IMG/VR virus record: IMGVR_UViG_3300020220_000067
Span: 1-55,342 of that record
Strand: one strand, 5' to 3'
DNA: 55,342 bases
From: a virus
Taxonomy: Duplodnaviria; Caudoviricetes
In this document: positions 1 through 55,130 of the stretch, one piece after another
Layout of the letters: each line of letters opens with the position of its first letter
How positions within the stretch are numbered: position 1 is the first letter of the stretch
Translations under genes and position numbers: made by a program
Notes under the pieces: generated by a model
Database searches by the model: none
The model's input: only the letters and a program-made list of their open reading frames with translations
Told to the model about the DNA's origin: nothing

Positions 1-219
1 AACGCAAAAGACCCTGAAACAAAACAAAGGTTAAAAAGAGCGTATGATTATATTGAATCGGTGAAAGAAAAGTCAAAAGAGAAAACCATTAGGTTACAGA
101 AACAAGAACATAATGAAGTGGAACTAACAGAAAAGTGTTGGCCAGGTTATACTCAAAAAGGAATGAAAACAATGTTCGGAAAGAGATACCCTAATTGTGT
201 AAAGAAGACAAAGAAATGA
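1..219 (+). CDS. Partial hypothetical protein ending in a small basic Cys module (LTE-KCWPGYTQKGMKTMFGKRYPNCVKK)
   Basis: Frame 1 is open from the window start to TGA at 217-219; translated by hand. Confidence 0.7.
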   Translation, partial: NAKDPETKQRLKRAYDYIESVKEKSKEKTIRLQKQEHNEVELTEKCWPGYTQKGMKTMFGKRYPNCVKKTKK

Positions 220-590
220 ACCTACAAGAAAACATACAGAGAATTAGAGAAATGATGGGAATAGACGAAACTATGACTGATTATCGTTTAGGTGAAATAC
301 CTTACGATGAAGAATCATTTTTTGTAACTCCAGATTATAAAACTTGGATTAAATTCTACCCTGATGAATAAATTTATAAAATTACTACAAATAAATTATA
401 CTTACCATTACGTGGTAAATCATTTTCATCTTGGGATGAACTTAGAAGTAAATACAATTTAGGTGAATTTACAGATGATGATGTATCTTATATTAATCCA
501 GAAGAAAGTGGAATTCAAGGATTTGAACAATACGAAATAAAACCTGATGATATAATTAATTTGGAACAATTAAACATTTATATGAAATAA
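216..590 (+). pseudogene. Leader-bearing hypothetical protein (MNLQENIQRIREMM) interrupted by an in-frame TAA
   Basis: ATG 216 overlaps the upstream stop; TAA at 369-371; the same frame continues for 72 codons to TAA 588-590, abutting the next ATG at 592. Confidence 0.6.
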
Positions 591-591
591 G

Positions 592-897
592 ATGAACATA
601 CAAGAATCCATAAGAAGAGGATCATATGAAAATATACCACCTCAAGTTAAAAGGAGATTACCAGAATTTGATGAAACTTTTATTCATTATAGAAATTTCT
701 TTAAAAATTACTTTTATAGACAATTCGACCATTTTTGGGATTCATTAATGGAAAGGGTATTAGAATCATTATATCATGAATGGTTTGTTAATTCAGTATC
801 TGAGGACAAATGGGACGATTCAGAACAATTCATACAAGATTATTTAACAGAGAAGTATTACGAAGATACCAAAAAATGGTGGGAAAAAAATAAATAA
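592..897 (+). CDS. Hypothetical acidic/aromatic protein with MNIQESIRR leader
   Basis: ORF track; leader resembles that of ORF 216. Confidence 0.75.
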   Translation: MNIQESIRRGSYENIPPQVKRRLPEFDETFIHYRNFFKNYFYRQFDHFWDSLMERVLESLYHEWFVNSVSEDKWDDSEQFIQDYLTEKYYEDTKKWWEKNK

Positions 898-975
898 TAC
901 ACTTACAGAGTGCCATAATTTTATCTTTTTGAAATATATTTTTTTACTTAAGTTTTTTGTAGTATTTATTTGAAT

Positions 976-1551
976 ATGAAAAGTATTATTAGAAAAATTC
1001 TTATAGAGGGCTCAAAATTAAATATATTAAAAAAATACTTAATAAAAACTTGGAATGATCAAGTTAAATCAGGTAAAATTCCAATGTTGAATATTATAGA
1101 TTTACATAGAAAAAATTTATCCAATCATATTGACGAAATAATTAAATGTTATTTTGAATTTGTTGGTGGTGAAGAAGAAGCATTTAAATTATTTAAGAAA
1201 TATATTGATGGTAAAATTATAACTGATGTAGATATAAGAAATATGGGCCTTAAGGTTTTACCTGAAGACCAATATAAAATTAAAATAACAAGAATTTACA
1301 ATTTAGATTACAGGGGTAACAGAATATTAGGAAGTAATGAAGAATTAGAATTTGGTTTTGAATTACTTAGTGGACAATTTTTAACAAGTGAAGGTATATT
1401 GACTTTGGAAGAATTATATGATGAAAAATATGAACATTTATGGTTTGACGTTAGAGATTATTTAAGAACTGAACTAGAAGATTATGTTTGGAGTGTTTCT
1501 AAAAATTTTGGTCTTGAGTTTGATGCTTATACATCTTATTCGAGAGATTAA
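976..1551 (+). CDS. Hypothetical protein (MKSIIRKILIE leader)
   Basis: ORF track; ATG 976 follows TATTTAT at 963-969. Confidence 0.8.
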   Translation: MKSIIRKILIEGSKLNILKKYLIKTWNDQVKSGKIPMLNIIDLHRKNLSNHIDEIIKCYFEFVGGEEEAFKLFKKYIDGKIITDVDIRNMGLKVLPEDQYKIKITRIYNLDYRGNRILGSNEELEFGFELLSGQFLTSEGILTLEELYDEKYEHLWFDVRDYLRTELEDYVWSVSKNFGLEFDAYTSYSRD

Positions 1552-1557
1552 AAAATT

Positions 1558-1584
1558 AAAAAGTTGGATTTCTCCGACTTTTTT
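1558..1584 (+). terminator. Rho-independent terminator
   Basis: AAGTTGGA-TTTC-TCCGACTT stem followed by a T-run. Confidence 0.65.
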
Positions 1585-1694
1585 ATTGTGAATAGTTTAC
1601 TCGTTTATCCCTCAGGAGTTTAATTACGTTTTAAACCGCTACCTGATTTAACAGAATATACGATCAAATCAATTTTTTTTATATATTTATTATT

Positions 1695-2243
1695 ATGAAC
1701 AAATACAGATTTTATACTTTATTAGAATCCAAATTGGGTAATTCAAAACCCTTGATATTCGAAAATAAATTAAAAGATGAAAGGTATCTGAATAAAAAAC
1801 AACAACTATTGGATTATCTTTATACCATTGGTTTAGAATCAGACAAAGATACAAAGGAAGTTGATATCAACAAAGATGGTAAGATAGACACAGAGTTATT
1901 TACATTCAACAAAGGAAACGTTGTGATGTATTTGGGTATATGTAATTTCTCAAACGGGGATATACAATATCTTTGTCTGATCAAAACAAAACCAGATTAT
2001 TATATTGTATTAAAACCAACCTTTGTAGAGACATTAGAAGAAGTACAATCAAACATAGAGCCATATATAAAACAATCCTACGAAGATACAAAACTTGATT
2101 TTCTTGGTGTAGAAAATCAAACGGAATATATTCCAACTAAAGATGAATTAAATGATTTAATAAATCAGGCTTTAGACGATGAGAATTTCGAAGAAGCAAC
2201 AAGGCTTCAAAACAAGTACGGAAATTTATATAAGAGTATATGA
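1695..2243 (+). CDS. Hypothetical protein with LLES..GN.KPLI.E leader and C-terminal UVR-like motif
   Basis: MNKYRFYTLLESKLGNSKPLIFE; C-terminal LNDLINQALDDENFEEATRLQ resembles the UvrB/UvrC motif. Confidence 0.75.
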   Translation: MNKYRFYTLLESKLGNSKPLIFENKLKDERYLNKKQQLLDYLYTIGLESDKDTKEVDINKDGKIDTELFTFNKGNVVMYLGICNFSNGDIQYLCLIKTKPDYYIVLKPTFVETLEEVQSNIEPYIKQSYEDTKLDFLGVENQTEYIPTKDELNDLINQALDDENFEEATRLQNKYGNLYKSI

Positions 2244-2272
2244 TTAAATCATTCGGTTCATAGTCCTACACT

Positions 2273-2719
2273 CGTTTCACTTCGTTCGGAATTCACCTCA
2301 TAATTTTATCCTATACTCTTAACGAGAGTAAGAATTACCGTTATATATTAAACAAGAGTAATTTTTACCGTCATAATCAGACCATACGGTAAATAAGATA
2401 TATTCTACCGTTTACATATCTATTCACGGTAAGTGGTATATTTTACCACATATACTTTATAGAAATGTAAATTACTGTAACGTGTATTACAAAAAGGAAT
2501 ATGTATAAAAAACATAATACTTTATACATGATGAGGTTCTCATGTATAGATTGTATACATAACTTACCATTTAGTAAGTTCCCCCCATTTCATAAACAAG
2601 ACCCCCATTATTAAGTAGACAAATATGTAGACGATTAGTGATCAGAAGAGTATTGGTGGTTTAGAGATGGGGATCACAGATCTTCCACTTTTTACCACTC
2701 CGTTTCACTTCGTTCGGAA
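2273..2719 (+). repeat. 19-bp perfect direct repeat CGTTTCACTTCGTTCGGAA (2273-2291 and 2701-2719)
   Basis: Read directly from the sequence. Confidence 0.9.
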
Positions 2720-3856: not shown

Positions 3857-3924
3857 AATAGAACAAAGGTATATATAATAATTAACATTACCAAATTTTT
3901 TTTCATACATTGGGGACAGATCCT

Positions 3925-4668: not shown

Positions 4669-4944
4669 ATGAAAAGAATTATAAGATTAACCGAATCGAA
4701 CCTTATTAGTATTGTAAGAAAAGTTATTAATGAAACTAATAGAATTGATGAAACATCACTTATTAATAGACTTCAATATCGTAAAGAAATAAAACAAGCA
4801 AACGAGTTAGGTGGATGTTCTTGTGTTGTTAAAACAATTGTGAGTGGAATTGTTGTAAAACCATGTTCAGAACTTACACGAACTGAAGAAGATAATATTA
4901 TCTATTACACAAAAGATTGCGATACATGGGATGGAATGTATTAG
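4669..4944 (+). CDS. Leader-tagged hypothetical protein (class A leader)
   Basis: MKRIIRLTESNLISIVRKVINE; TATTTAT at 4645-4651. Confidence 0.8.
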   Translation: MKRIIRLTESNLISIVRKVINETNRIDETSLINRLQYRKEIKQANELGGCSCVVKTIVSGIVVKPCSELTRTEEDNIIYYTKDCDTWDGMY

Positions 4945-4971: not shown

Positions 4972-5409
4972 ATGGACAAATATAGATTTAAACAATTACT
5001 GTAATCAACAATGGGAAATGTTAAACCGTTGATTATGGAAAACCCTACTGGTAGTACTCAAACAATCAGTAAGATGTTACAAGGAAAAAAATTTCGTGGT
5101 TTAACCAAAAGTGTAACAGGATTTGGTGATGTTTATTACGAACTTTGGGGACAGTCTAAAGGAAGATTATTTTATGTTAAATTTATTTTACTCCCCGATG
5201 GATTGGTTGAGACAACAGTTGGATCAGAGGACCCGACGTACTTTGACATGGTTGAGGCCGTGTATAATTCTTTAGACGGTTTTGAGAAAATTGGGTTTGA
5301 TAAAAGTGACACCGAAGCGGTAAAAGGTAAAATAAAGACAAAGTTTGACAAAGAACAGGTTGCTCAACTATTTCACGCATTGGAGAAATCATATAATAAA
5401 GTGTCCTAA
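4972..5409 (+). pseudogene. Class C leader protein with TAA at the conserved leader Glu (ORF resumes at ATG 5011)
   Basis: MDKYRFKQLL*STMGNVKPLIME versus MDKKRFNQLLESKVGNVKPLISE at 8697; TAA at 5002-5004. Confidence 0.7.
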
Positions 5410-5641: not shown

Positions 5642-6031
5642 ATGAAAAGAACAATAGAACTTACAGAATCTCAATTAACCAAGTTGATTCAAAACATTAT
5701 TAAAGAAAATTTATACGATAATGATTTATACTCACAGATCATGAGTACTCTAAGTAACTCGACATCTTCCAACGAAGAGAAAATTGATATGCTTAGAATT
5801 ATCATAGATGAAATGGAATCAGCAAATCAAATAAGACAAAATATGAGATCACGTTCTAGACGTAGAATGGATGAGACAAAAGATAATAACAAAGAATCCG
5901 ATCTTATTCAAATTTATAATTTATACAAGGAGGGAAAAATCAGTAAAAAACATTTCTACGACTTTTTAGAAATTACTGATAGAAAAGAACAAGATGAATT
6001 AAGGCGGTACATTGAAAATAAAAAGAACTAA
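5642..6031 (+). CDS. Leader-tagged hypothetical protein (class A)
   Basis: MKRTIELTESQLTKLIQNIIKE; TATTTAT at 5631-5637. Confidence 0.8.
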   Translation: MKRTIELTESQLTKLIQNIIKENLYDNDLYSQIMSTLSNSTSSNEEKIDMLRIIIDEMESANQIRQNMRSRSRRRMDETKDNNKESDLIQIYNLYKEGKISKKHFYDFLEITDRKEQDELRRYIENKKN

Positions 6032-7374: not shown

Positions 7375-7707
7375 GTGAAAATTATTATTTCTGAAAATCA
7401 AAAATATGTTATTAGACGCATACAACAATTTATAGAAATTGTTGAAGATCAGATTGAAGGGTATGAACTAAACACAGACGATCCTTGGTGGTGTAGATCT
7501 TATGATCCAGATACTTTTTTGGAAAATGTCAGAGGTAGATCAATTGAAATATTTGTTGATAAAAATTGGGATTTTTTTAATGATAACACAACTAATGGAG
7601 GATCCAAAATAGATCTATCTCTTTTATATCAAATTTTTCACTCAGAATATGGAAATGAAATCAGAAATCTTTTTGTCCGTAAATGTAATCATCAACGTTA
7701 TTGGTAA
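7375..7707 (+). CDS. Leader-tagged hypothetical protein (class B)
   Basis: GTG start, MKIIISENQ...IRR; TATTTAT at 7351. Confidence 0.8.
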   Translation: MKIIISENQKYVIRRIQQFIEIVEDQIEGYELNTDDPWWCRSYDPDTFLENVRGRSIEIFVDKNWDFFNDNTTNGGSKIDLSLLYQIFHSEYGNEIRNLFVRKCNHQRYW

Positions 7708-8696: not shown

Positions 8697-9437
8697 ATGG
8701 ATAAAAAAAGATTTAATCAATTACTTGAATCTAAAGTTGGAAATGTCAAACCACTTATTAGTGAATCTTTACCCCCACTAAGTAATTTTCCTATTCAAGG
8801 AGGAAGATACAATATTGGTTATGATGATGATTGGGATAATTTTAGTAATCCCATGGGAACTGCAAATAGCGACTTCTCAACTAAACCAACTTATGCTGGT
8901 TCAGGAGGTCATTTAAAGGGACATATTGGAATTGATATTTTTGGACAAAGGGGTACACCAATACTAGCCCCTGTTAATGGAAGAGTAAAATATGCTGGTA
9001 ATGGACTAACGGTAATAATAGAGGATCCTGAAACAGGTTATTCTCATTGGTTAGGGCACTTAGATTCAAGAACTGTAGACGAAGGTGTCTTTGTTTTTGC
9101 AGGACAACAAGTAGGAACCTTGGGTGATTCTGGAAACGCTAAAGGTACTGCACCTCATTTACATTATAATATATACAAAACTAATCAAGGTTTTTATTCA
9201 GGAGAAGATCCTTTGGATATCCTTAAATCTGCAATAAACAAAACTGCAAAAAAACCAGAGGAGGTCGAATATAAAGATCTTGGTCCAAATTTTAAAAAAT
9301 CATTTTTGAAATTGTTTGACGATGAAGAAAAAACGGAAGAAGGAAATGTGAAAGCTGATGATGAAGTAGACCTATGGGACAAGATGAAAACCGCAGGAAA
9401 AGTATTTTTTAACAAACTCAAAGATATATTTGATTAA
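8697..9437 (+). CDS. M23 family metallopeptidase (murein hydrolase) with class C leader
   Basis: HxGxD (HIGID), GHL, GQQVGTLGDSGNA and PHLHY motifs. Confidence 0.9.
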   Translation: MDKKRFNQLLESKVGNVKPLISESLPPLSNFPIQGGRYNIGYDDDWDNFSNPMGTANSDFSTKPTYAGSGGHLKGHIGIDIFGQRGTPILAPVNGRVKYAGNGLTVIIEDPETGYSHWLGHLDSRTVDEGVFVFAGQQVGTLGDSGNAKGTAPHLHYNIYKTNQGFYSGEDPLDILKSAINKTAKKPEEVEYKDLGPNFKKSFLKLFDDEEKTEEGNVKADDEVDLWDKMKTAGKVFFNKLKDIFD

Positions 9438-9503: not shown

Positions 9504-9830
9504 ATGAAAATTATTGTTTCTGAAAGACAATATAACCATGCTTTCTTAAGAAGAAGATTTTACGAAATATTGAATGAAGCGTTACTCATGATTGCAGATG
9601 ACGGTGCTTTTTATGGTGACATTGACTTTTGTTGGGAATATCCCACGTTTTATAGTTTTATGGAAGATATGGTTGCTGAAATAACGCGTCATTATGACTT
9701 TAATTATGGACACGACATAGCTGAATTTATCTATGGTGATATTGGAGTTAAAAACTTTATTAAACTGTTACTTGATGAACACGGTAATGAAATTAAGGAA
9801 TTCTATGATCTAAAAACAAAAGATTGTTAA
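9504..9830 (+). CDS. Leader-tagged acidic protein (class B)
   Basis: MKIIVSERQ...LRRR. Confidence 0.8.
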   Translation: MKIIVSERQYNHAFLRRRFYEILNEALLMIADDGAFYGDIDFCWEYPTFYSFMEDMVAEITRHYDFNYGHDIAEFIYGDIGVKNFIKLLLDEHGNEIKEFYDLKTKDC

Positions 9831-9831
9831 C

Positions 9832-10107
9832 ATGAAAATTATTATTTCTGAAAGTCAATTTGATAATGTTTTGAAAAAATACGAAAGAGTTTTAAATAAT
9901 TTAAAATTTTATGGTGTTAAGAAAATAACATTGGACTATAGAGATCCAGAAGCTATTGAGGTGAATATTTTTTATGATATAAAATTAGCAATAGAACTCG
10001 GACAAGATTTCAATACAGTTCAGTGGAAAACGAATAGAAACATTTTCAATGTTGTAGAAAAAATAAATTTAGGACCAAAGTATTTGTACTATCTACACTA
10101 TGAGTAA
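9832..10107 (+). CDS. Leader-tagged hypothetical protein (class B)
   Basis: MKIIISESQF. Confidence 0.8.
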   Translation: MKIIISESQFDNVLKKYERVLNNLKFYGVKKITLDYRDPEAIEVNIFYDIKLAIELGQDFNTVQWKTNRNIFNVVEKINLGPKYLYYLHYE

Positions 10108-14623: not shown

Positions 14624-15271
14624 ATGACAAAAATTATAAGATTAACAGAATCAGACCTTTACAGAATTGTCAAAAAAACTATCATGGAGGTTAAAGAGAA
14701 AGAAAAAGAAAAAGAAAAGACACAAAAAGAAGAACCAAAAAAATCTGGACCAAAAAACATTATAATTGGAGATTCTCAATGTGCTTGGATTGCTAAAAAA
14801 AGTTCTAAATTCAACCTCATGTCTGAAAAGGGTAGTATGGGATCGTTATGGTCGCCAGGAAAAGGTTTGTCTTGGTTAAAAAATGCGGTTGAATCTCATA
14901 GAGGATCTTCTGTGATAAAAAATATTGCAATCTCAATTGGTACCAATGGAGGATTTAACAAAAATGATGATGTCAAAGGTTTAGTTTCATTATTGAGAGA
15001 AAAATTTCCAAATGCAAAATTGTTTGTTGTTCAAGGCTCATGGGGATGGGGATCTAATAAAAATATTACAGAGAAAGAAGTTGAAAATTACTACTCAATG
15101 TTTTCCTCACAACGTGTGAAAGTAATCAATCCTCCAATAGGTAAAAATGAACCTCATCAAAATTTACCTAGTTATTCATCAATTGGAAAAAATTTAGATA
15201 ATCAACCATTAAACGAAAATTACAGGTCAATATATGAATCTAATTTCATTTCTAAAAAAAAAGCGAAATAA
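14624..15271 (+). CDS. SGNH/GDSL-like hydrolase with class A leader (possible frameshift extension to 15453)
   Basis: IIIGDSQ block I, ISIGTNG block III, late His (EPH). Confidence 0.65.
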   Translation: MTKIIRLTESDLYRIVKKTIMEVKEKEKEKEKTQKEEPKKSGPKNIIIGDSQCAWIAKKSSKFNLMSEKGSMGSLWSPGKGLSWLKNAVESHRGSSVIKNIAISIGTNGGFNKNDDVKGLVSLLREKFPNAKLFVVQGSWGWGSNKNITEKEVENYYSMFSSQRVKVINPPIGKNEPHQNLPSYSSIGKNLDNQPLNENYRSIYESNFISKKKAK

Positions 15272-15495: not shown

Positions 15496-16110
15496 ATGAA
15501 AAGAATCATAAGATTAACAGAATCTGATTTAACTCGTCTTGTAAGACGGATTGTAAAAGAAAATGAAGAAAATTGGATTAGTCAATCGGAAGATTTAGGA
15601 TCAGAATCCGATTTTACGTCTATGAACCTCAAACAAGACAAAAGATTTAGAAGATTAGTGTCTTTTTTCAAGAATCATCCTGAAATTGCAATGGATATTA
15701 AAAAATCTTTAGAAAGAAGTGTAAACGAAAATTACAAATACTACGATTATAGTGGAGCTCCAAAAAAAGAAATAACAAAAAAACACTTTTTAAAAAGAAA
15801 ACTTGCAACATATGGACTTGCAACAATTGTAAGTGCTATAGTTGGATCCACAATAGGTGTCATGGCTGGCGAAGAAGTACTTGAAGCGGCACTTGTTGCT
15901 GCTGGTATGGGAGGTCCATTATTTGGGGCTTTATCATCTGAAGTAGGTAGAGAAAAAGTGACAGATGAACCCCCTGTAGACAATGATGAAACTGAAGATA
16001 TAGAAGAACCACTGAGTGAACGATGGTCACAAAAATACAAAAAATCAATTGATTGTAATAATCCAAAAGGTTTCTCCCAAAGAGCTCATTGTCAAGGAAG
16101 AAAAAAATAA
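15496..16110 (+). CDS. Class A leader protein with a hydrophobic hairpin and a C-terminal basic Cys module
   Basis: MKRIIRLTESDLTRLVRRIVKE; LSE-RWSQKYKKSIDCNNPKGFSQRAHCQGRKK. Confidence 0.85.
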   Translation: MKRIIRLTESDLTRLVRRIVKENEENWISQSEDLGSESDFTSMNLKQDKRFRRLVSFFKNHPEIAMDIKKSLERSVNENYKYYDYSGAPKKEITKKHFLKRKLATYGLATIVSAIVGSTIGVMAGEEVLEAALVAAGMGGPLFGALSSEVGREKVTDEPPVDNDETEDIEEPLSERWSQKYKKSIDCNNPKGFSQRAHCQGRKK

Positions 16111-17481: not shown

Positions 17482-18099
17482 ATGAGTAAATTTTTAATTA
17501 GTGAATCAGAAAAATCAAGAATATTGAACATGCATAAAAATGCCACTAAACGTCAATATTTGTCCGAACAAAGCTGGAAGTGGAAACAAGGTGATCCTAC
17601 TCCTGAAAAATTAGACCCAAATACAATCAACACAACTGTAACTTTAGAATATACTGCGTTAACCACACCGGTAAAAGAGAATGACAAAACATTTAATTTT
17701 GATGGATCGAAATTAAATGTAGATATAAAAGGAATTCCTAATTTATCCGCAGGAACTTTTGTTTATGAGTTTACACTAGCGGGTAGAGGGATGAAACAAT
17801 TTGGTCCGATTACAAACGCTACTGTTAATGGTGATGTATTGTCATTCAGTATTCCTCTTAAGAGAGGAGATCTTTCTTTGGATTACATAAATAACGAGCT
17901 TATTTTAGATTCTAAAAATAAAAGGCAAGTTAATTATGTTTTATCAGTAGGCGTACTCCCAAGCTACTACGATACAAAACAACTTAGACAGACAAGTGGT
18001 ATGGCTAATGTAGTCGCAAATCAAGTACAAGGATCAAACCCAACACCACAAGTCGCTCAACAACCTCAAAGTGTAGCAACCCCAACAACAAAATCTTAA
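17482..18099 (+). CDS. Leader-tagged hypothetical protein (class D)
   Basis: MSKFLISESEKSRILNMH...YLSEQ. Confidence 0.8.
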   Translation: MSKFLISESEKSRILNMHKNATKRQYLSEQSWKWKQGDPTPEKLDPNTINTTVTLEYTALTTPVKENDKTFNFDGSKLNVDIKGIPNLSAGTFVYEFTLAGRGMKQFGPITNATVNGDVLSFSIPLKRGDLSLDYINNELILDSKNKRQVNYVLSVGVLPSYYDTKQLRQTSGMANVVANQVQGSNPTPQVAQQPQSVATPTTKS

Positions 18100-18188: not shown

Positions 18189-19748
18189 ATGCGAAATTTT
18201 TTGTTAGAAACTGAATTAAAAAAAATGAAAATGCTTATGGGTTACGACCCACAAGAAACCCTCACAGAAAATGAAATTCCATCATTAGATAAAGTTGGAA
18301 ATACCTGGACGGGTACGTTGGATATGACTAACGCATCGGCATTTGGGAAATTTAAAAATGAAGGATCTTTTTCCGAGGCAGGAAAAATAGTTTATATCGA
18401 AGCGGCATCTTCAGCCATTGGTTACGAGGGTATCACAGTTTCGACACCAAAACAAGAAAATTCAAATAAAGAAGATACGGAAACTAAAGTGCCGGTATCA
18501 ATTGATATTGATGTAGATGCGACTGAACCTTTTGAGTTCGATTCACTTAATTTAGTTTCTGGTGGAACTGAAGCAATTACAAAGTTTGCAAATGAAATTT
18601 TAACAGGAGTTGAGGAAGATTATGGACCTGATGTTAAAGAAAAATATTATACTTGGTTAAAATCAAAACCGATTACAATTAGGGCGTATTCCTCAATTGA
18701 CGCATCTTCTAATTTTCCTGACGGTGGTACAGTTGCTGAGTGTGCTCAATATGGGACAGGAAAAGGACCAAGAAAAACTTATAATAAATGTTTATCACAA
18801 AAAAGAGCCGAAGTTATTGTTTCTGAACTAAAAAAGAAAGGTGGTATACTTGCAGAGTTAACCTATGATCCTGTTGGTATGGGCGAAACAAACAAATTTA
18901 GTAAAATTGTTTGGGCCGATGGGAATAAAACTTTCGGACCAAAACCTAGTAAAAGCGAAGATCAAAAAAATCCTAACGGAACTGATAAAACACAACCTGA
19001 CAGAAGATTTGAAATAATTGTACCTACTTTTACATTGTCTGACCCTCAACCAAATCCCGACGACGATAAATCAAACAACTCCAATATTAGTTCTGTAGGA
19101 AAAAGACCTATGTGTTACAAATGGGCGGTAGTTTTAGGTATTGCCACCGAAGAAAATATTGCATATGGAAAAGAAAAAGAAGGACGAAACGGAATGTTGG
19201 TAGATGATAGAAATCAACCAATAATGGTAAATTTAAAAACTCAAGCCCCTCAATCATTAATGAGCCAAAAAGGAATTTGTTGGGATTCTGAAGTTATGGG
19301 TTGTGACAGTCAAAAAGGAAATTTTATTTGGTGTAAAAATCAATGGCCTTTAGTTTGGGACCTTAGTAGTGACTTAGGAATAACTGGCGATTACAAAATT
19401 CCTTGTAGAAAAGAAGCGGGAGGGGCAAGAATGTTTTTTGATGGTAAAGTTTTAGAAGATAAACTAGGTGAAGATTATCCAAAATATTTTTACTTTGATA
19501 CAGACGACAAAAATCCCGAGGTTACAATATCAACTTCAGGTATAGAATTGAACTTTGAAAAACAAAATATATATTTTGGTCCATGGATTACACCTCAAAA
19601 AAATTTAGATCAAACAAATTCTGTATTTAAAATAACCCCTTATAAATTTAAAGTTTCAAATGTTGGTACTGGAGGCGAAAACAACGATATTCAAATAGTT
19701 GGATTGAGTAAAATTTCATTTTCACTAAGTAAAAACCCAAATCTATAA
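18189..19748 (+). CDS. Protein with OmpA-C-like peptidoglycan-binding domain and class E leader
   Basis: FEFDS, ITIRAYSS, YNKCLSQKRAEVI, GMGET and DRRFEI motifs. Confidence 0.65.
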   Translation: MRNFLLETELKKMKMLMGYDPQETLTENEIPSLDKVGNTWTGTLDMTNASAFGKFKNEGSFSEAGKIVYIEAASSAIGYEGITVSTPKQENSNKEDTETKVPVSIDIDVDATEPFEFDSLNLVSGGTEAITKFANEILTGVEEDYGPDVKEKYYTWLKSKPITIRAYSSIDASSNFPDGGTVAECAQYGTGKGPRKTYNKCLSQKRAEVIVSELKKKGGILAELTYDPVGMGETNKFSKIVWADGNKTFGPKPSKSEDQKNPNGTDKTQPDRRFEIIVPTFTLSDPQPNPDDDKSNNSNISSVGKRPMCYKWAVVLGIATEENIAYGKEKEGRNGMLVDDRNQPIMVNLKTQAPQSLMSQKGICWDSEVMGCDSQKGNFIWCKNQWPLVWDLSSDLGITGDYKIPCRKEAGGARMFFDGKVLEDKLGEDYPKYFYFDTDDKNPEVTISTSGIELNFEKQNIYFGPWITPQKNLDQTNSVFKITPYKFKVSNVGTGGENNDIQIVGLSKISFSLSKNPNL

Positions 19749-20885: not shown

Positions 20886-21611
20886 ATGAAACTCAAATTA
20901 ACTAAGGATCAATACAATAATTTGTTTGAACAAAATACATCTTTAGACATACCTATTGTTGGAAAATTAGATGTTTCTAAAATTCCTTTGGTCGGAGATA
21001 TGATAGCGCCAAAGGAGTTTAAAAAAAAGTTTAAAAAAATATCTCAAAATACTATTTTAGAAGAAAGGTATCAATTAAAAATTTATAGAAGAGAAGAAAA
21101 TAACACTTACCCTAAGGAAATATGTGTGGTATTCAATGGATTTTTGAACGTTGGGGTCGACTACTCAACATTACCTTCAGGATTATTAGATCTAAGAACA
21201 GTTGTAATTTCTGAATATAATAATAAATTCGAGGACGTAAAATCACAATTAGAATTATTAACAAAAGATAAGACCTCTACTTTATACAATCAAAAAATTA
21301 AAATTACTTCTATTATTGGATTTTCTTTGGGTGGGAGAATACCGACCAAATATATAAATCGAGGATATTTTATAGGTTTGATTGATCCTTACTTAGATAA
21401 AGAATCATTAGGTAGATCTTTGGTGAATGATTTATCAAATGTTAGAATGATTTATGGAAATGATCTTTTTTGGAATTCATTGGCTCAATCACACGTTTAT
21501 GACAATATTAAAAAATTGGCAAGAAAAATGGAAGATAAAGCAAAGTTTGTTAATAAATTTCACACCGAAATTCCAAAAATATTTTTCGAAAAATACTACA
21601 AATTAATGTAA
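20886..21611 (+). CDS. Putative alpha/beta hydrolase with class B-like leader
   Basis: IIGFSLGG (GxSxG), LIDP, late His; MKLKLTKDQYNNLFEQ. Confidence 0.55.
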   Translation: MKLKLTKDQYNNLFEQNTSLDIPIVGKLDVSKIPLVGDMIAPKEFKKKFKKISQNTILEERYQLKIYRREENNTYPKEICVVFNGFLNVGVDYSTLPSGLLDLRTVVISEYNNKFEDVKSQLELLTKDKTSTLYNQKIKITSIIGFSLGGRIPTKYINRGYFIGLIDPYLDKESLGRSLVNDLSNVRMIYGNDLFWNSLAQSHVYDNIKKLARKMEDKAKFVNKFHTEIPKIFFEKYYKLM

Positions 21612-22484: not shown

Positions 22485-22856
22485 ATGAAAATAATTATCA
22501 CTGAAAGTCAAAGACACAAGATGTACCAAAGATTACGTAGAATCTCTGAGTTAAAAGAAAGTATTGAGTTTCAAACTGAAGTTCATGATCCATGTAACTT
22601 TGAAGACGGTGAAAATTATGCCGATTTTTGTATTGATGAAGCATTTTGTTTTTTTTATCGAGATCAAAATTGTAATGATGACTATGATGAAGATTATGAT
22701 GAGGATGAAGATGAAGGGGATGAAGTACCAAAAAAATATGATATTTTTGATGATGAAGATTATCCTGAAAGAGAAGAATTATATAATTTATTGTACGAGG
22801 AATATTTTTTCAAAATAAAAGAAATGTGGGAAGAATATTCCATAAATTGTAAATAG
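22485..22856 (+). CDS. Class B leader acidic protein (RR...DPC family)
   Basis: MKIIITESQ...LRR...HDPCNF. Confidence 0.8.
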   Translation: MKIIITESQRHKMYQRLRRISELKESIEFQTEVHDPCNFEDGENYADFCIDEAFCFFYRDQNCNDDYDEDYDEDEDEGDEVPKKYDIFDDEDYPEREELYNLLYEEYFFKIKEMWEEYSINCK

Positions 22857-30745: not shown

Positions 30746-31366
30746 TTAAGATTTGAATTTTTTTATTATTTTTTTAATTAAATCATGAATAATTTTTGAA
30801 GATAAAGTACTTCCAAAATAAGAAACAACACCTTTTGTAATTTCTGAAATATCTTCAGAGTTTAATTCATGTGTTGAGAACTCTAATAACTTGGGTAATA
30901 AAGGAATCAAAAAGGTATATCCTATCATCATAGAAATGTTATACATAGATAAATTCAAACCTTCTACGAAGTTCAAAAAGGTTGATTTTAATTTTTCAGA
31001 TTGTCTTAACATAGAATTGAATTCAGAAACTAAATTTCTTTCTTTAATTTTTTTTAGAATATCAGATAACATTTTTTTATTATCCGTAAAATAAGTTAGA
31101 ACACAACCTACAGTAATTAAAGTAAGGTCTTGATTAGTAATATCAATTTCATTTGTCTTAATAAAATGTGTAATTGGCATCATAAAACCACCAATTGTTG
31201 CGCCCCATGTTAAAAGGTAACTTAAATCAACACTTAACTGATTTTTAGCCGAAATCACTAAATCTTTGAAGAAGGACTTTGATTTATCTAATTCTTTTTC
31301 TATTGAGGAATTTTTACTCTCAACTATAATATTTCTGTATTGGGATTCTGTTATTGTGATTCTCAT
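30746..31366 (-). CDS. Class B leader protein with hydrophobic helices
   Basis: MRITITESQYRNIIVE. Confidence 0.8.
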   Translation of the reverse strand: MRITITESQYRNIIVESKNSSIEKELDKSKSFFKDLVISAKNQLSVDLSYLLTWGATIGGFMMPITHFIKTNEIDITNQDLTLITVGCVLTYFTDNKKMLSDILKKIKERNLVSEFNSMLRQSEKLKSTFLNFVEGLNLSMYNISMMIGYTFLIPLLPKLLEFSTHELNSEDISEITKGVVSYFGSTLSSKIIHDLIKKIIKKFKS

Positions 31367-32187: not shown

Positions 32188-32799
32188 ATGAATCAGTACT
32201 TTTTTAAAATGAAAAAAGAAGAAAAAGAAAATATTCTTGATCAACATAAATCAATATATGATGGATACGTTACCAAGTATGGACAACAAATAAATAATCA
32301 ACCTTTATATATTCAAGATTTAGCAAACGATAAAAATGGAATTACGGTTTCTAACAAAGGAAATGTATCTACTTATAAAAATGTTGGTATTAATGAAAAT
32401 GTTTTAGACACAATTGGAGACGGAGAAAACGATTTAAAAAATGGAACGGTGGATTTAGATTCTGAAATGAGTTTCCAAATGGACGATGCAAATTTTTTAC
32501 ACGATATCCTTCCATCACCAAATGATGATGAACACGAAATTATAATTTCTTTGGGTGACCTTGGTAATGAAAATACCAAATTTGACATAATTGATACTCA
32601 AGACGACTACACCGATGAGTCAGAAAATAGTTTTAATATACAATCAATTGATGATCTTGAGGATGAAGAGTACACAACATTTGACGATCTACCATATAAT
32701 GAATTTTTTAATTCTGAGGACATAGAAGACGTGGAATCTTTGGAAAATTCAATAAATGAGTCCTTAGACATGTTTAAAAGATTTAAAAAATACAATTAA
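32188..32799 (+). CDS. Acidic hypothetical protein with class D-like leader
   Basis: FFKMKKEEKENILDQH; INE sites. Confidence 0.8.
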   Translation: MNQYFFKMKKEEKENILDQHKSIYDGYVTKYGQQINNQPLYIQDLANDKNGITVSNKGNVSTYKNVGINENVLDTIGDGENDLKNGTVDLDSEMSFQMDDANFLHDILPSPNDDEHEIIISLGDLGNENTKFDIIDTQDDYTDESENSFNIQSIDDLEDEEYTTFDDLPYNEFFNSEDIEDVESLENSINESLDMFKRFKKYN

Positions 32800-38371: not shown

Positions 38372-40468
38372 ATGAAATATTTTTTAAATGAAGAAATAAA
38401 AAGAAGTTTGGTTCTTATGGGTTTACCTGAAAGAATTTCACATAGATTATCTGAAGCCATTTCTGCTGCAGCCTCAACCAATCCAATCTTGGAATTTATG
38501 GCGATTTTGAAAACGGCAATGAAAAAAGGGGACGTAGAAGTTTTAACTGCGGAAGAGAGAAGGGCAATCGCGGCATTTGCTGATGAACTACAGGGTCAAA
38601 AAGTCATAGATGATTTTGGTGATGTGGGAGAAAGATTGACAAAAGATCAGTTGACAATACTTAAAAATTATTTTAGTGGGACAAGTATTGGTAAAGGTGT
38701 GGACATTGCTTATGCTTCTATGATATACCATAATACAAGTGCATCTATAAGATACTTAGAGGTTGAAGAAGAAATATTCGAATCATTAGAAAGACAATTA
38801 GCAGAAGTAAGTGATAACTCTACTGAAGAATTAAAAACAGTAAGAGATTTATTTGATGCCGCAAAAGACAATGAACTTAGTCCTGCGGTAAGGGCGGAAC
38901 TTGCAGAAAAAGCTAAAGTAGTTGCTGCTAAATTGGAAGAAGACAATATCTACAAAAAATTGATACTTGACACTGCAGATAATGAGGCGGCAAAGGCCGA
39001 ACGACAAGCCAAAAATGGTAATGTGTACTTGGTCACTGATGATGAGATTGCAAAAGTCACTGACGAAGGAATACAACAATTAAAAGATGCTGCTGATACA
39101 GGCCTTTCTAAAATGGAAGACGAGTTTGGGGACATTGTTTTTAGAGGAACCGAAGATTTAGAAGAAGAAATTGGTGAAGAAGAAGCTGTTAGTTTAGAGG
39201 AGGCGGCACAAAAAGCATTCATGGAAAGAATGAATCAAACTTGTAAGTCAAAATTTTGCGGAACTATGTATGCTTACTGGAAAGGGAAGTCGCCAAAATT
39301 TGACTCGATGTGGGACATCATGGTTAAAGAACTAGAAAAAATGATGAGAACCTCAACAGGGCAAAGTTTGAGTAGAATACCAAAAGAAACTGAAGATACA
39401 TATAATATTATATTAAAAAAATTCAAAGAAGGTAATACACCTTTAACATTGGATCAGTACATGACTTTAGGTCAAAAAGTTTATGATAAATGGTCCAAAG
39501 GTGGTATTTGGGAAAGATTTAGTTTGTCAGGTTTATTTGGTACAGGAAGACAAAGTATGGTCACTTTGGGAAGATTTAGTTTGGGTTCGGATTTGTATAC
39601 AGGTAAATGGACATTAAAAAGCTCCATCAAAAGATGGGCACCTTTCAACGCTTTATGGTTGTTATGGTCAATTGGGGTTGGTGTTTATGAATTGAAAGTT
39701 GGAAGTGACGACCCAAATAAAACGACTGAAGATATTTTAAGAGAAGCGGTTGTAGATTGGGTAAAAAATTCCGTTGCAACGGGTTTTGGTTTAGCTTTTG
39801 CACCAAGATTAGCAATGGAGGGTTTAATAGAGGGATTCCAATTTCTTTTACCTCCAAGTACATACGTAAATAAAGAAGATTTGATTGAGTATCTAAAAAA
39901 GAACTCATTATCTTCCCAAGGAACCGCTTGGACAATTTTAGAGATAAATGATAATATTTTTAATAAGAAAGGTGTTAAAGTTTATTTTGGGCCAGATGAC
40001 GAACCACCAATAACGCAAATCACTGGAATTAAAGACCCGGCATATTCTATGGCAAATGGTAGATATTATTTTGAAAAAACGGGAGATTTTTCTTATAAAT
40101 TAGTTTTTATACCTGAAGGTCAGAAAAAACCAAAAGTAGAGGAGGAAAAAACAGATGAGTTGGATAAAAAATCGATTGAAACTATTGAGAATCAAATTGC
40201 AACAAATTCGGTTTTATCTCAATTTATAAAAGACCGTTTGACAGGTATAATTAAAAGTCATAAAAAACATATTGATTTCAAATCACAGAAAAAAATGTCA
40301 CAAGATGACGGTAGTCAAATCATTGCACTAATTTTTGAATGGAAAGACAAGGACACTGATCAAAGTTATAAATTCGCCTTTAATTACACAAAATTTAAAT
40401 CAATGAATAATCCCGATTTGAAAAACCAAGAAAATTGGGCTCAACTAGTAAGAGAATATAAAGAATAA
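38372..40468 (+). CDS. Large helical protein with leader and TM segments
   Basis: Likely ATG 38372 after TATTTAT; MKYFLNEEIKRSLVLMG...LSE. Confidence 0.8.
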   Translation: MKYFLNEEIKRSLVLMGLPERISHRLSEAISAAASTNPILEFMAILKTAMKKGDVEVLTAEERRAIAAFADELQGQKVIDDFGDVGERLTKDQLTILKNYFSGTSIGKGVDIAYASMIYHNTSASIRYLEVEEEIFESLERQLAEVSDNSTEELKTVRDLFDAAKDNELSPAVRAELAEKAKVVAAKLEEDNIYKKLILDTADNEAAKAERQAKNGNVYLVTDDEIAKVTDEGIQQLKDAADTGLSKMEDEFGDIVFRGTEDLEEEIGEEEAVSLEEAAQKAFMERMNQTCKSKFCGTMYAYWKGKSPKFDSMWDIMVKELEKMMRTSTGQSLSRIPKETEDTYNIILKKFKEGNTPLTLDQYMTLGQKVYDKWSKGGIWERFSLSGLFGTGRQSMVTLGRFSLGSDLYTGKWTLKSSIKRWAPFNALWLLWSIGVGVYELKVGSDDPNKTTEDILREAVVDWVKNSVATGFGLAFAPRLAMEGLIEGFQFLLPPSTYVNKEDLIEYLKKNSLSSQGTAWTILEINDNIFNKKGVKVYFGPDDEPPITQITGIKDPAYSMANGRYYFEKTGDFSYKLVFIPEGQKKPKVEEEKTDELDKKSIETIENQIATNSVLSQFIKDRLTGIIKSHKKHIDFKSQKKMSQDDGSQIIALIFEWKDKDTDQSYKFAFNYTKFKSMNNPDLKNQENWAQLVREYKE

Positions 40469-50601: not shown

Positions 50602-50681
50602 TACTATAAATACAAATTTAAAAAAAATTTATTAAAAAAAGTTTTGTTATTATTTATAGTTATAATTATAATTAAACTGAG

Positions 50682-52781: not shown

Positions 52782-52862
52782 AGTATAGTGGATTTATATA
52801 TATAAATATCCAACTAAACTAAAAAAGTTGATTTAAAACTAAAATATATTTATATTAGTATT

Positions 52863-52958
52863 ATGGAAGATATACACCAACAGATCCACGAGGAGTTTAT
52901 TAACTCAGAAGATTATGAAAAATTTTTGTACGAATTAAATCAATATGGCTTGATTTAA
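52863..52958 (+). CDS. 31-aa acidic peptide
   Basis: MEDIHQQIHEEFINSEDYEKFLYEL...; TATTTAT upstream. Confidence 0.45.
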   Translation: MEDIHQQIHEEFINSEDYEKFLYELNQYGLI

Positions 52959-52969
52959 ATTTTTTTTTG

Positions 52970-52977
52970 TATCTTTG
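52970..52977 (+). promoter_or_regulatory. Bacteroidota -7 promoter element TATCTTTG
   Basis: 4 nt before ATG 52982; similar elements at 53487 and 55171. Confidence 0.7.
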
Positions 52978-52981
52978 TAGT

Positions 52982-53479
52982 ATGAAAAACGAATTACCAT
53001 ACGAAAAAACAGGAAACGCGATTAAGGGATATACTGAATCTTCAATTGCCAGAAGTGAAACAAATGATTGTGTTGTTAGGGCTTTCGCATCATCTTTTGA
53101 AGTTTCATACGATTACGCTCACAGGTATGTTGCCGATGAATTTGGAAGAAAACCAAGAAAAGGAACTTATGGGACTATAAAAACTCTTGTTAAGATGTCC
53201 GACAGTTTAATAAAAGTGAATGGTAAGAAAATCTGTCCTCTTGGGGTAAGACACAATGATCATTTATTAAAATCATTAATGTATGATGTTACTGTTAAAG
53301 GTGTAACTAAAAAAAGAAACATGACCGTAGGTACTTTTGTTAAACAAAACCCAAAGGGAACTTTCTTTGTACTTGTTAGACAACATGCCTTTACAATCAA
53401 AGATGGTGTTGTTATTGGGAATCCTGAAGACGCAACAAAAACAAAACGACCTATGAGATGTGCCTTTGAAATCAAATAA
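52982..53479 (+). CDS. Hypothetical protein with DCVVRA...H motif (possible Cys-His hydrolase fold)
   Basis: NDCVVRAFA...VRQHAFTIKDG; start ATG 52982. Confidence 0.65.
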   Translation: MKNELPYEKTGNAIKGYTESSIARSETNDCVVRAFASSFEVSYDYAHRYVADEFGRKPRKGTYGTIKTLVKMSDSLIKVNGKKICPLGVRHNDHLLKSLMYDVTVKGVTKKRNMTVGTFVKQNPKGTFFVLVRQHAFTIKDGVVIGNPEDATKTKRPMRCAFEIK

Positions 53480-53523
53480 AAATTTATATATTTGTAATTA
53501 ACATTTAATACGGAATTTACCAA

Positions 53524-54096
53524 ATGAAAACCATATTTCTTTTTTTATACTCATTAATTTTTTTCAGTTGTTTTTCACAAGTAGTGAATTATAATAATTT
53601 TGACTCAAAACTTTTTGATCAATTACTTGTTGACAAAATCAACAATTATCGGGTATCAATAGGTTTGAAATCTTTGTTTGTATCTCAAACATTGAAAAAC
53701 TATACTTCTGAAAAAACCGCAACTCAATGTGCCAAAACTGAATTTGCGAGTCATATTAAATTTAGTAATGTTAATGACAGCGTTAATAAAAAGTTATATG
53801 AAGAACTATACAATTTTACTAATGGATCGTGCGGGGTAAAAACACCATCAAATTTATTTATTAATGAAGGTATTGGTGAAATCATCTCAGTAAAAAAAAT
53901 TAACAATGTAACTTATGAACAATTGGCAACCATTACACTAAAAAGTTGGTTAGATTCTCCAGGACATAAAAAAGTAATTGAATCTCAATTTACAGATATA
54001 AGTTTAAACTTCGGTTTGATAAGTTGTTCCTCAAAGGTCTCAAAAACAAATATTGTATATACAAGTTGTAATTTTGTTGCAATATCAAATTATTAA
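53524..54096 (+). CDS. Secreted CAP/SCP domain protein
   Basis: Signal peptide; INNYR, GEI and WLDSPGHKK motifs. Confidence 0.8.
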   Translation: MKTIFLFLYSLIFFSCFSQVVNYNNFDSKLFDQLLVDKINNYRVSIGLKSLFVSQTLKNYTSEKTATQCAKTEFASHIKFSNVNDSVNKKLYEELYNFTNGSCGVKTPSNLFINEGIGEIISVKKINNVTYEQLATITLKSWLDSPGHKKVIESQFTDISLNFGLISCSSKVSKTNIVYTSCNFVAISNY

Positions 54097-55130
54097 TAAG
54101 GTGCAACGTACTTAGAATATCTTTGGCCACCAGTTACAGTATTTCCTTCAGAAATTCCCATCATGTATTTTAAAACAACATCATCTTTTGAAACATTGGA
54201 TTGAGGAGGAAAATTTTTATCAATAACTTTTGTGTTGTTATATTGTTGTCTTGTGATTTTTGATATTTTTGAACCATCATTAGTCCAATAAAAATTCCAT
54301 CTTGCTAATGGCTCTGTATATGTATTCTTTAAAACATTTGGGTTCCACTTTATTTCAAAAGCCGCTAATTTATTTTTATTATTTCTAGTTGACTGTGGGC
54401 ATTGAACATCATAAAAATCAGGAGTTGCTGGTTTACCCTGTGAATTTGTACCATCACAAAAATATGTTCCAGTTGAAACCATATTTGCGGTTATTTCTGT
54501 AAAATTTTGAACGGAGTTAAGATCGTTTAGTTCGTCTTTTGACTTTAGTGAAATTTGACAATTTATAAACTGACCTGTATTGGGGTATAAAGATGTATCT
54601 CTATCTTTATCATTTTTACCTCCAGTATTTACCACAAATGATTGTGTCATCACTCTAGTTAAATTCGGATCTTTGAAAACTTTAAAAGGTTTTAGTTTTT
54701 CAAAAAGTTTAGTTTCAAAAACTTTTGCTCTATTAAGTGATAAATCCAAGTTTTTCTGATATAAAACTGTTTCGGATGGTGTGACTTTTGTGTATAAATC
54801 ATTTTCCAAATTATATCCTGTCGCTTTACCTCCCCAAGAATTACTGGCTCCTGACCCAACTCTTATAAAAGAACAATAAATACCATTGGCACTTGCTCTT
54901 AATTTTCCAGCTTCTGCATTTGCATCTATTTTAGCAACTAAATTTTTTACATAATCATCAATAAAAGTTGATGGGTCTGTACCTCCAGCAGGATATGTAC
55001 TTGTCGCTCTATAATTAATCGAGAATGATTCAGTAATTATATTCTTATGTTCGAAATTAATATCCAACTCGTTAAGATATAAATTTAAAATACGTTTTTT
55101 TTCTTCTTCGCTGATAATAAATCTTTTCAT
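54093..55130 (-). CDS. Class D leader protein with a divergent OmpA-like segment
   Basis: MKRFIISEEEKKRILNL...LNE...ITE; GAS...NLDLSLNRA. Confidence 0.6.
   Translation of the reverse strand: MKRFIISEEEKKRILNLYLNELDINFEHKNIITESFSINYRATSTYPAGGTDPSTFIDDYVKNLVAKIDANAEAGKLRASANGIYCSFIRVGSGASNSWGGKATGYNLENDLYTKVTPSETVLYQKNLDLSLNRAKVFETKLFEKLKPFKVFKDPNLTRVMTQSFVVNTGGKNDKDRDTSLYPNTGQFINCQISLKSKDELNDLNSVQNFTEITANMVSTGTYFCDGTNSQGKPATPDFYDVQCPQSTRNNKNKLAAFEIKWNPNVLKNTYTEPLARWNFYWTNDGSKISKITRQQYNNTKVIDKNFPPQSNVSKDDVVLKYMMGISEGNTVTGGQRYSKYVAPY

Follow-up and report, generated by a model that had tools for sequence, protein, structure and literature searches.

Short exchangeable leaders on unrelated proteins of an uncultured phage: a candidate capsid-targeting system of the T4 type

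Leader families in a 55-kb phage contig

The window studied here, meaning the whole stretch of 55,342 bp that was analysed, is an uncultured-phage contig of ~29% G+C (IMG/VR record IMGVR_UViG_3300020220_000067) and constitutes all of this genome on record. A sequence-only reading of this DNA had claimed that about 30 of its open reading frames (ORFs), otherwise unrelated, begin with one of five short leaders (classes A to E) containing or ending in (L/I/V)-x-E, and had taken these as address tags that load proteins into the phage head, as in phage T4. We translated all 29 starts named in that reading. A solid leader is present on 23 ORFs (9 in class A, 7 in B, 2 in C, 2 in D and 3 in E), while the other six (20886, 32188, 592, 23613, 33341 and 4972) turned out to be loose or broken. 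The ORFs, named after their start position, are given below, together with two extra candidates beyond the earlier reading; an arrow marks the border after the last Glu of the candidate leader, and G001 is a related IMG/VR record.

4669..4944, plus strand: class A ORF, 91 amino acids (aa), MKRIIRLTESNLISIVRKVINE↓T
5642..6031, plus: class A ORF, 129 aa
6128..6532, plus: class A ORF, 134 aa
8208..8615, plus: class A ORF, 135 aa
11475..12101, plus: class A ORF, 208 aa, acidic body
14624..15271, plus: class A ORF, 215 aa; G001 ortholog with a class B-like leader
15496..16110, plus: class A ORF, 204 aa; body with a class D leader in G001 and P0085
22098..22418, plus: class A ORF, 106 aa
28049..28588, minus: class A ORF, 179 aa; leader one residue shorter, MKRIRLNENELISLIKMAINE↓N
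7375..7707, plus: class B ORF, 110 aa, GTG start, KIIISE↓NQ
9504..9830, plus: class B ORF, 108 aa; body weakly related to leaderless ORF 4315-4611
9832..10107, plus: class B ORF, 91 aa
13396..13728, plus: class B ORF, 110 aa
13730..14128, plus: class B ORF, 132 aa, MNYLITE↓SQ
22485..22856, plus: class B ORF, 123 aa; body within a longer protein in G001, behind ..IYE↓S
30746..31366, minus: class B ORF, 206 aa, MRITITE↓SQ
20886..21611, plus: loose class B candidate, 241 aa, MKLKLTKDQ; the expected place is without Glu
1695..2243, plus: class C ORF, 182 aa, MNKYRFYTLLESKLGNSKPLIFE↓N
8697..9437, plus: class C ORF with Peptidase_M23 body, 246 aa; G001 ortholog with a class D leader, ISE↓SLP versus LNE↓SLP
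4972..5409, plus: broken class C leader, TAA after 10 codons (4972-5004), restart ATG at 5011, MGNVKPLIME↓N
17482..18099, plus: class D ORF, 205 aa, MSKFLISESEKSRILNMHKNATKRQYLSE↓Q
54093..55130, minus: class D ORF, 345 aa, MKRFIISEEEKKRILNLYLNE↓L
32188..32799, plus: loose class D candidate, 203 aa; only EEKxxILxxH in common
216..371, plus: class E ORF, 51 aa, ..IQRIREMMGIDE↓T
18189..19748, plus: class E ORF, 519 aa, ..LKKMKMLMGYDPQE
38372..40468, plus: class E ORF, 698 aa, ..IKRSLVLMGLPE; G001 ortholog ..ILKIKKLMGL
592..897, plus: loose class E candidate, 101 aa
23613..24140, plus: loose class E candidate, 175 aa
33341..35731, plus: loose class E candidate, 796 aa; IVE site not kept in the G001 ortholog
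976..1551, plus: extra candidate, MKSIIRKILIE↓G, resembling the second half of class A
28655..29269, plus: extra candidate, MMEILKKVIRE↓S, resembling the second half of class A

A hidden Markov model of the nine class A leaders recovers these nine and no others from the window's 1,412 six-frame segments (E <= 5.5e-10; next match 0.043), and in 9/9 cases the leader starts at the first ATG of its own ORF. Class B is clear in seven of eight members (7375, 9504, 9832, 13396, 13730, 22485 and, on the minus strand, 31366), the loose one being 20886. In class C, 1695 and 8697 are clear and 4972 is interrupted by an in-frame TAA (MDKYRFKQLL*S); in class D, 17482 and the minus-strand 55130 are clear and 32188 shares only EEKxxIL. 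The class E members 216, 18189 and 38372 have (I/L)x(R/K)(I/M)(R/K)x(L/M)MG in common, while 592, 23613 and 33341 are loose. The TAA of 4972 sits where the other class C members have Glu (LL*S versus LLES), and the ATG at 5011 follows six bases on; this leader may be pseudogenised, a sequencing error, or a leaderless variant in the course of arising.

Is this N-terminal likeness more than chance? As a control, the best ungapped BLOSUM62 score was computed between residues 1-25 of all 3,003 pairs of the 78 window ORFs compared. A score of 30 or more is reached by 67 of the 3,003 N-terminal pairs. When residues 31-55 were compared instead, 2 of 2,850 pairs reached this level, and with residues 56-80 it was 3 of 2,145; at 40 or more there are 40 N-terminal pairs and none in either internal segment. 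N-terminal likeness is thus ~20-30 times commoner than likeness between internal segments and far beyond chance, and the internal-segment control excludes a compositional artefact as its cause. Classes A, B, D and E merge into one group by single linkage at a score >= 27, and classes A, B and D have a core M-(K/R)-x-Phi-Phi-x-(L/I)-(S/T)-E in common which the earlier reading had missed. Across the window, G001 and a second related record, G002, 63 of 64 matches to this core lie within 40 residues of an ORF start.

Behind the leaders, the bodies are diverse, and the proteins mostly have only the leader in common, which is the pattern seen with T4 internal proteins. In all-against-all BLASTP, alignments mostly end at residue 22-27 in class A, at 24 in class C and at 20 in class D, which bears out the earlier statement that similarity stops after the last xxE. 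Four class A pairs align further (6128/8208 over 64 aa, 11475/6128 over 51 aa, 4669/8208 over 45 aa, 15496/5642 over 105 aa with 31% identity), and among class B bodies there is one weak pair only, 9504 with the leaderless 4315. Neither Pfam nor PHROGs placed a protein of classes A, B, D or E in a family, the only match being Peptidase_M23 in 8697; a search of the ESM Atlas with ORF 8208 returned nothing above chance, and structure prediction for the 15496 family (15-row alignment) was too poor to use (mean predicted local distance difference test score 46, predicted template modelling score 0.30).

Signal peptides or other secretion signals were considered and rejected, as the leaders are charged and ordinary signal peptides sit on other ORFs of the window. 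Indeed, 19802-20425 and 53524-54096 are paralogs (25% identity) with signal-peptide-like starts, and 12388-12618 and 12696-13391 are lipoprotein-like (..LVGCN and ..ITSCGG), so that ordinary export signals are also present in the region and are distinct from the charged leaders.

Leader exchange and selection on the peptide

Comparison with G001 revealed that orthologous bodies can carry different leaders. ORF 15496 has a class A leader joined to its body as ...RIVKE↓NEENWI, whereas its G001 ortholog has a class D leader, MKNFIITESEKQRILEMHQSATSRQYLKE↓NEDEWI (..YLKE↓NEDEWI). The body of 8697, 78% identical between the two, follows a class C leader in the window (...KPLISE↓SLPPLSNFPIQGG) and a class D leader in G001 (MKRIIISEEERNHILKSHGLNE↓SLPELDVFPIQGG), with the junctions ..LISE↓SLPPL and ..GLNE↓SLPEL, respectively. 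Similarly, 14624 has a class A leader in the window and its G001 ortholog a class B-like one, and the body of 22485, which in the window starts with class B MKIIITE↓SQ..., lies internally in G001 behind ...IYE↓SV. In an alignment of 15 sequences of the 15496 body, 13 with a class A and 2 with a class D leader, residues E22, N23 and E24 are invariant, and the variable C-terminal add-ons of this family are likewise joined after (L/I)-S/N-E. The leaders are therefore exchangeable modules, joined to the body exactly after Glu, and since orthologous bodies carry unrelated leader classes, the leader is not part of the body fold.

At the DNA level, identity amounts to 0.67 within the leader, compared with 0.41 in the 66 nucleotides (nt) upstream and 0.32 in the next 22 codons, and 120 of 354 codon pairs for the same residue (34%) use different codons. 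Since leader identity exceeds that of both flanks and synonymous codons differ, selection acts on the leader peptide, i.e. at the protein level.

The leader genes also have upstream signals in common. The element ATATTTAT lies within 55 nt upstream of 11/16 leader genes and 9/62 other genes in the window, of 12/19 and 50/341 in G001, and of 9/29 and 40/324 in G002. In G001 it precedes the gp23, scaffold-like, gp21 and core-position genes, but it also stands 66 nt ahead of the DNA polymerase gene, and a variant differing in one base precedes a gp41-like gene. We thus dropped the idea that it is a late promoter and make no claim of late-gene timing; ATATTTAT is a general promoter-like element of these phages and no proof of late expression. 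The T4 late-promoter 8-mer TATAAATA precedes 0/78 window genes, and ribonucleotide reductase, sought as an early-gene marker, was not found in G001 or G002. Furthermore, terminator-like hairpins with G/C stems are enriched in positions 4001-24000 (32 versus 6.1 +/- 2.3 in shuffled sequence), strong ones standing just before leader genes, while sigma-70-like sites are not (120 versus 113 +/- 10). Together, the predicted terminators and the promoter-like element would make each leader gene a self-contained cassette, much like PeSL, and such cassettes probably explain the shuffling of cargo and leaders.

Head protease, lineage and spread

By tblastn, 46 of the 78 window ORFs match G001, colinearly, at 150-224 kb of that record. 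G001 (290,887 bp) and G002 (291,867 bp), both IMG/VR records 99% complete by CheckV, were reached via a homolog search from ORF 15496. Both encode a Gp23-family capsid protein (E about 1e-64), and the closest isolated phages reach only ~43% capsid-protein identity to the lineage. Because of its synteny with G001, the T4-type head genes there and this low identity to isolates, the window is a piece of a distant, uncultured T4-like jumbo phage of ~290 kb. BLASTP with the proteins of the T4 record gives the order of the G001 head block as terminase (252234), portal (254243), two core-position ORFs, protease (257574), scaffold-position ORF (258639; 585 aa, acidic) and capsid protein (260464). Just upstream of the terminase lies a 448-aa ORF without Pfam family (G001 250815-252161, equal to L110 10815-12161), whose start MGHKELEKLIRRIVKE↓A resembles the second half of class A. 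PHROGs named only one of ten motif-bearing G001 genes, a gp13-like adaptor.

Peptidase_S77, the family of the T4 prohead protease gp21, is present in G001 (E 1e-23) and G002 (E 5e-26). A degenerate DNA pattern for the class A start matched at least 117 IMG/VR stretches, and ten of the records were examined for both proteins. S77 and Gp23 are encoded in each of the four records of 98-100% completeness (295-412 kb); the five small ones are 11-28% fragments, one of which has both, and the one record of 71% completeness gave no S77 match. With G001 and G002, both proteins are thus found in 6/6 near-complete (>= 98%) leader-bearing records. The gp21-like protease expected from the earlier reading is therefore present in the near-complete relatives, but not in the 55-kb window, which holds neither a protease nor a capsid gene, being a genome fragment.

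The protease of the lineage aligns to T4 gp21 (PDB 5jbl, E 1e-13) and keeps ELNHPE and GISSRG in 5/5 relatives, which we take to hold the catalytic His and Ser; the 5jbl chain has Ala at both places, presumably owing to an inactive mutant having been crystallised. Near its N-terminus it has ILIE where T4 gp21 has LLIE. The capsid protein has (F/H)LI(N/Y)E↓A(T/S/A), 18 residues before VVFPI(V/I)RR, in 7/7 relatives; the latter region aligns to the start of mature T4 gp23, where T4 has FLTE↓A, and further conserved I-(K/R)-E, (L/I)-K-E and L-(Y/F)-E lie upstream of this site. Class A leaders end in VINE, IIKE, VIRE, IISE and similar; the ending is I-S/T-E in class B, I-x-E in class C and L-x-E in class D. 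As the earlier reading had it, the leaders thus end in a T4-type (L/I/V)-x-E, which is the same motif as the lineage's own predicted capsid-protein maturation site. Complex prediction of a G001-type S77 protease (5 rows) with the first 40 residues of class A (9 rows) scored 0.00 in a run without controls and speaks neither for nor against.

Class A is spread very widely. When residues 1-30 of the nine window proteins were made into a profile and searched against 1.84 billion representatives of clusters at 50% identity, 7,685 representatives matched at E <= 0.001 and 94 at <= 1e-10. Among the best 150 of the 7,685, the copy starts at residue 3 or before in 142. In a logo of 147 N-terminal copies from metagenomes, L7 (147/147), T8 (145/147) and E9 (147/147) are followed by I/L/V/M at position 20 (146/147), a free position 21 and E22 (146/147), after which conservation falls into polar residues; part of this uniformity arises because the 147 copies were chosen among the top-scoring matches. 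Isolated phages gave no blastn match to 33341-40468 and no tblastn match to ORF 8208 at E <= 10, no relatives of the 796-aa ORF 33341 were found among viral contigs, and homologs are named 'hypothetical protein' throughout.

Borders of a similar kind occur around small basic modules rich in Cys or Cys and His:

16024-16107, plus: C-terminal Cys/His basic module of ORF 15496, LSE↓R just before
136..216, plus: C-terminal Cys-rich basic module of the ORF cut by the window start, CWPGYTQKGMKTMFGKRYPNCVKK, ELTE↓K just before
L096 2758-4857 and L097 3007-4836: cyanophage multi-module proteins, Kyanoviridae

The modules WSxKYKKSIDCNNPKGFSQxAHCQGRKK and CWxGYxxKGMKxMFGKRYPNC, which end ORF 15496 and the ORF cut by the window start, recur on hundreds of viral contigs (at least 600 pattern matches). 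Within the retrieved loci, [ILVM]-x-E-x-W stands before 39 of the 45 distinct copies of the first module, whereas its background frequency is 1.9% per position. They also occur inside multi-module 'hypothetical' proteins of 610-700 aa in isolated cyanophages of the Kyanoviridae (S-CAM9, S-SRM01), in which only DUF5661 and DUF6321 were recognised. Such an [ILVM]-x-E border is as expected if a head protease trims the modules apart, and could equally be part of the module; the modules themselves may be protease-released DNA-binding peptides.

As to the host, ORF 24706-27180 (824 aa; 88% identity to its G001 copy) has a signal-peptide-like start, SprB repeats, a PKD-like domain and a CHU_C type IX secretion sorting domain, besides a weak Hoc-like head-decoration match in PHROGs. 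It is a Bacteroidota surface-protein gene borne by the phage and the best clue to the host, which, given the SprB repeats and the CHU_C domain, is probably a Bacteroidota bacterium. Upstream regions in the window are A-rich and free of Shine-Dalgarno sequences, a Bacteroidota-like feature, as is the enrichment of hairpins with G/C stems. Elsewhere, a glycan-modification cluster on both strands (41970-51977), in part common with G001 at 220 and 275-278 kb, encodes five family-2 glycosyltransferases, a class I methyltransferase, a PglD-like hexapeptide acetyltransferase and a DegT-like fragment, and a single tRNA-Arg (anticodon TCT) lies at 52193-52265. In the segment 2243-4300, G+C is slightly raised and the short ORFs (2971-3150 on the minus and 4030-4236 on the plus strand) look non-coding, yet show 56-62% identity to G001 by tblastn. 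An Rfam scan of 2200-4400 found nothing credible; one possibility is a conserved structured RNA, another an intron-like element surrounding ORF 3299-3715.

A capsid-targeting reading and its alternatives

In T4, according to the available excerpts of PMC9026906, the prohead protease gp21 cuts after L/I-X-E, and internal proteins carry N-terminal capsid-targeting propeptides of 10-19 residues; with Asp in place of this Glu, processing is blocked. Excerpts of PMC3012670 and PMC9026906 state that diverse T-even internal proteins have only this capsid-targeting sequence in common, and PMC3012670 that the processed T4 protein IPI* counters GmrSD. With this in mind, we lean towards reading the leaders of the window as propeptides that target proteins to the capsid in the manner of T4, in a greatly expanded system with several leader classes. 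That the proteins dock, are cleaved, stay in the virion and are injected is what we infer. The N-terminal leader, which in class A consists of the short hydrophobic MK(K/R)II(R)L(T)E and a predicted amphipathic helix behind it, would attach a newly made protein to the prohead core during assembly. Peptidase_S77, a serine protease of the gp21 type, would then cut after the Glu of (I/L/V)-x-E, in class A probably at both L-T-E9 and I-x-E22; the leader would be lost, the body would stay in the head with the DNA and may be delivered into the next cell. For the capsid-address-tag reading speak the T4-like lineage, the protease, the cut-site match, the exchange at Glu and the N-terminal position. 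The earlier interpretation is upheld in part, and among its complications is the recurrence of class A inside proteins.

This recurrence, the finding that agrees least with a simple N-terminal signal, is one of several points that weigh against a capsid-targeting propeptide. Among the best 150 of the 7,685 profile matches, 52 carry a second, internal class A copy, usually without MKKII and often starting from (K)LTESDL, so that class A is not purely an N-terminal signal; such copies fit polyproteins with built-in cut sites as well as a reusable helix module. An (L/I/V)xE occurs in the first 30 aa of 27/28 leader ORFs but also of 23/50 others, and the tripeptide is not depleted in the bodies (0.0167 versus 0.0178 per residue). 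The bare tripeptide is hence weak evidence, even if in the first 12 aa the figures are 26/28 and 10/50, and the strength lies in the conserved families. In addition, the only cargo of recognisable function or fold family is the M23 peptidase 8697, the window is without protease or capsid gene, the lineage is uncultured and distant in its capsid protein from the nearest isolates, and ATATTTAT also stands before the DNA polymerase gene. With 22 aa in class A and up to 29 aa in class D, these leaders exceed the 10-19 aa of T4, and homology to the T4 leaders (MKTYQEFIAE / MKTFKEF..) was not found, since only MK, hydrophobic residues and the aliphatic-x-E form are shared. At best, then, the leaders would act like the capsid-targeting sequence of T4 without being its homologs.

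Could the leader instead be a stable adaptor, a strand plus amphipathic helix that is not removed and that docks proteins to a common hub other than the prohead core, or oligomerises them? The class A hydrophobics L12, I15, V16, V19 and I20 fit the i, i+3, i+4, i+7, i+8 spacing of an amphipathic helix, and both the internal second copies in 52/150 and the internal motif in four loci of the first retrieved set (L015, L021, L032 and L034) are what a reusable adaptor would give. We nevertheless consider this rather unlikely, since orthologous bodies function with unrelated leader classes (A/D, C/D and A/B), since the non-hydrophobic position that never varies is the Glu at the leader's end, with an aliphatic residue at the second position ahead of it, i.e. 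the protease motif and that of the capsid site, and since a docking helix need not sit at residue 1, where 142 of the best 150 copies nonetheless start. A further extension of the capsid-targeting reading, which we find doubtful, would see the leader classes as an address code of a 290-412-kb T4-like clade, with class-specific core partners or copy numbers, and with the internal class A copies and the [ILVM]-x-E module borders marking polyproteins cut into packaged pieces.

It is improbable, in our judgement, that the conserved 5' ends are simply recombination or regulatory cassettes like PeSL, with a peptide that has no targeting role. The hairpins directly before leader genes and the enrichment of ATATTTAT upstream of them in the window, G001 and G002 do resemble such cassettes, which are on record (PMC2839356, excerpts). 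Conservation, however, peaks in the coding leader and not upstream, a third of the same-residue codon pairs differ synonymously, internal copies of the motif exist far from any promoter, and the exchange point is a fixed amino-acid position rather than a DNA patch; cassettes probably drive the shuffling, yet leave the peptide unexplained. Even less probable is a tag for another phage machine, such as a ClpA/ClpB-type ATPase, by which proteins would be marked to be unfolded, turned over or activated at a given time. Clp-type unfoldases are known to recognise N-terminal tags, and G001 has a fitting gene at 244330-246390 on the minus strand, with matches to AAA_2 (E 2e-67), AAA_lid_9 and ClpB_D2-small. 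Nothing ties this ATPase to the leaders, and the Glu-terminated boundary and its match to the capsid site would be left unexplained. The ATPase itself (L110 4330-6390; 686 aa, double AAA+), a few kb from the head block, is unusual for a phage.

The capsid-targeting reading gains further contour by comparison with known systems. Like T4 IPI, IPII, IPIII and Alt, the window proteins have a short N-terminal leader ending in (L/I)-x-E on otherwise unrelated bodies, and as in T4 the lineage has Peptidase_S77 and a Gp23-type capsid protein whose propeptide ends in the same motif; the leaders in the T4 record are MKTYQEFIAE↓A (IPII and IPIII), MKTFKEFTSTTTPVSTITE↓A (IPI, ...STITE↓A) and ..FLTE↓A (gp23). 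T4 has one leader class and a handful of tagged genes, compared with at least four or five classes and 23-31 tagged genes in 55 kb here; the present leaders, of 7 to ~29 residues, are known from sequence alone, and class A has two candidate cut sites and recurs inside proteins. The earlier claim of a scale far beyond that of T4 has a precedent, as phiKZ-like giant phages have large families of processed head proteins. By the excerpts of PMC9026906 and PMC5694885, 201phi2-1 has 19 processed proteins and SPN3US a family of 20 head paralogs, and the N-termini of SPN3US gp53 and gp54 are identical over 15 residues that hold the motif. According to these excerpts, the giant phages phiKZ, 201phi2-1 and SPN3US (proteases gp175 and gp245) have many head proteins that are processed after Glu, and their propeptides are thought to act like a capsid-targeting sequence, as we propose here; their motif is S/A-x-E, many propeptides exceed 100 residues, and the proteins are true paralogs. 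Here, in contrast, I/L/V stands two before Glu, short leaders are attached to unrelated bodies, and the head genes are of the T4 type. Neither S/A-x-E nor a gp175/gp245-type protease was found, as the position is I/L/V/M in 146/147 copies of the class A logo and the protease matches Peptidase_S77/T4 gp21 directly.

PeSL, as excerpted from PMC2839356, likewise concerns orphan ORFs of a variable region flanked by a G/C-stem terminator and a promoter-like element; in the window, however, the conserved unit also covers the opening 7-29 codons, with selection acting on the protein, and the promoter-like element is ATATTTAT and not a sigma-70 pair. A full-text literature search with the leader strings retrieved no relevant paper, the sole match being an unrelated article of 1905, and a topical search gave only papers on T4, PeSL and SPN3US. 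Outside phages, the cargo-loading peptides of encapsulins and the encapsulation peptides of microcompartments are short terminal, often amphipathic-helical, movable tags that load diverse cargo; they differ in not being removed by a shell-associated protease and in serving cellular compartments, not virions. Peptidoglycan hydrolase-like activities occur in ejected internal proteins of other phages, and a virion-carried peptidoglycan hydrolase such as the M23 protein 8697 would make biological sense.

In summary, T4 already provides the loading principle (PMC3012670, PMC9026906), and with so many tagged genes the window is reminiscent of phiKZ-like phages and their head families (PMC5694885), all cited from excerpts; new here are several interchangeable short leader classes on unrelated bodies, in a T4-type lineage and with a very wide spread in metagenomes. 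If the capsid-targeting reading is true, the T4 principle would have given rise to several tag classes that can replace one another and are used on a very large scale, and the leaders would provide new short tags for putting foreign proteins into phage heads. Even with another role, a 22-residue module on thousands of unrelated phage proteins would be an undescribed feature. If the leaders do load the capsid, a simple sequence feature would mark the virion-carried proteins of uncultured giant phages, the first to act in the infected cell, a class otherwise invisible without virion proteomics and one which, as T4 IPI* shows (PMC3012670, excerpts), includes counter-defence factors. Should the address-code extension hold as well, thousands of clusters, 7,685 for class A alone, would form a labelled catalogue of virion-delivered proteins, many of them likely engaged in counter-defence or takeover of the host.

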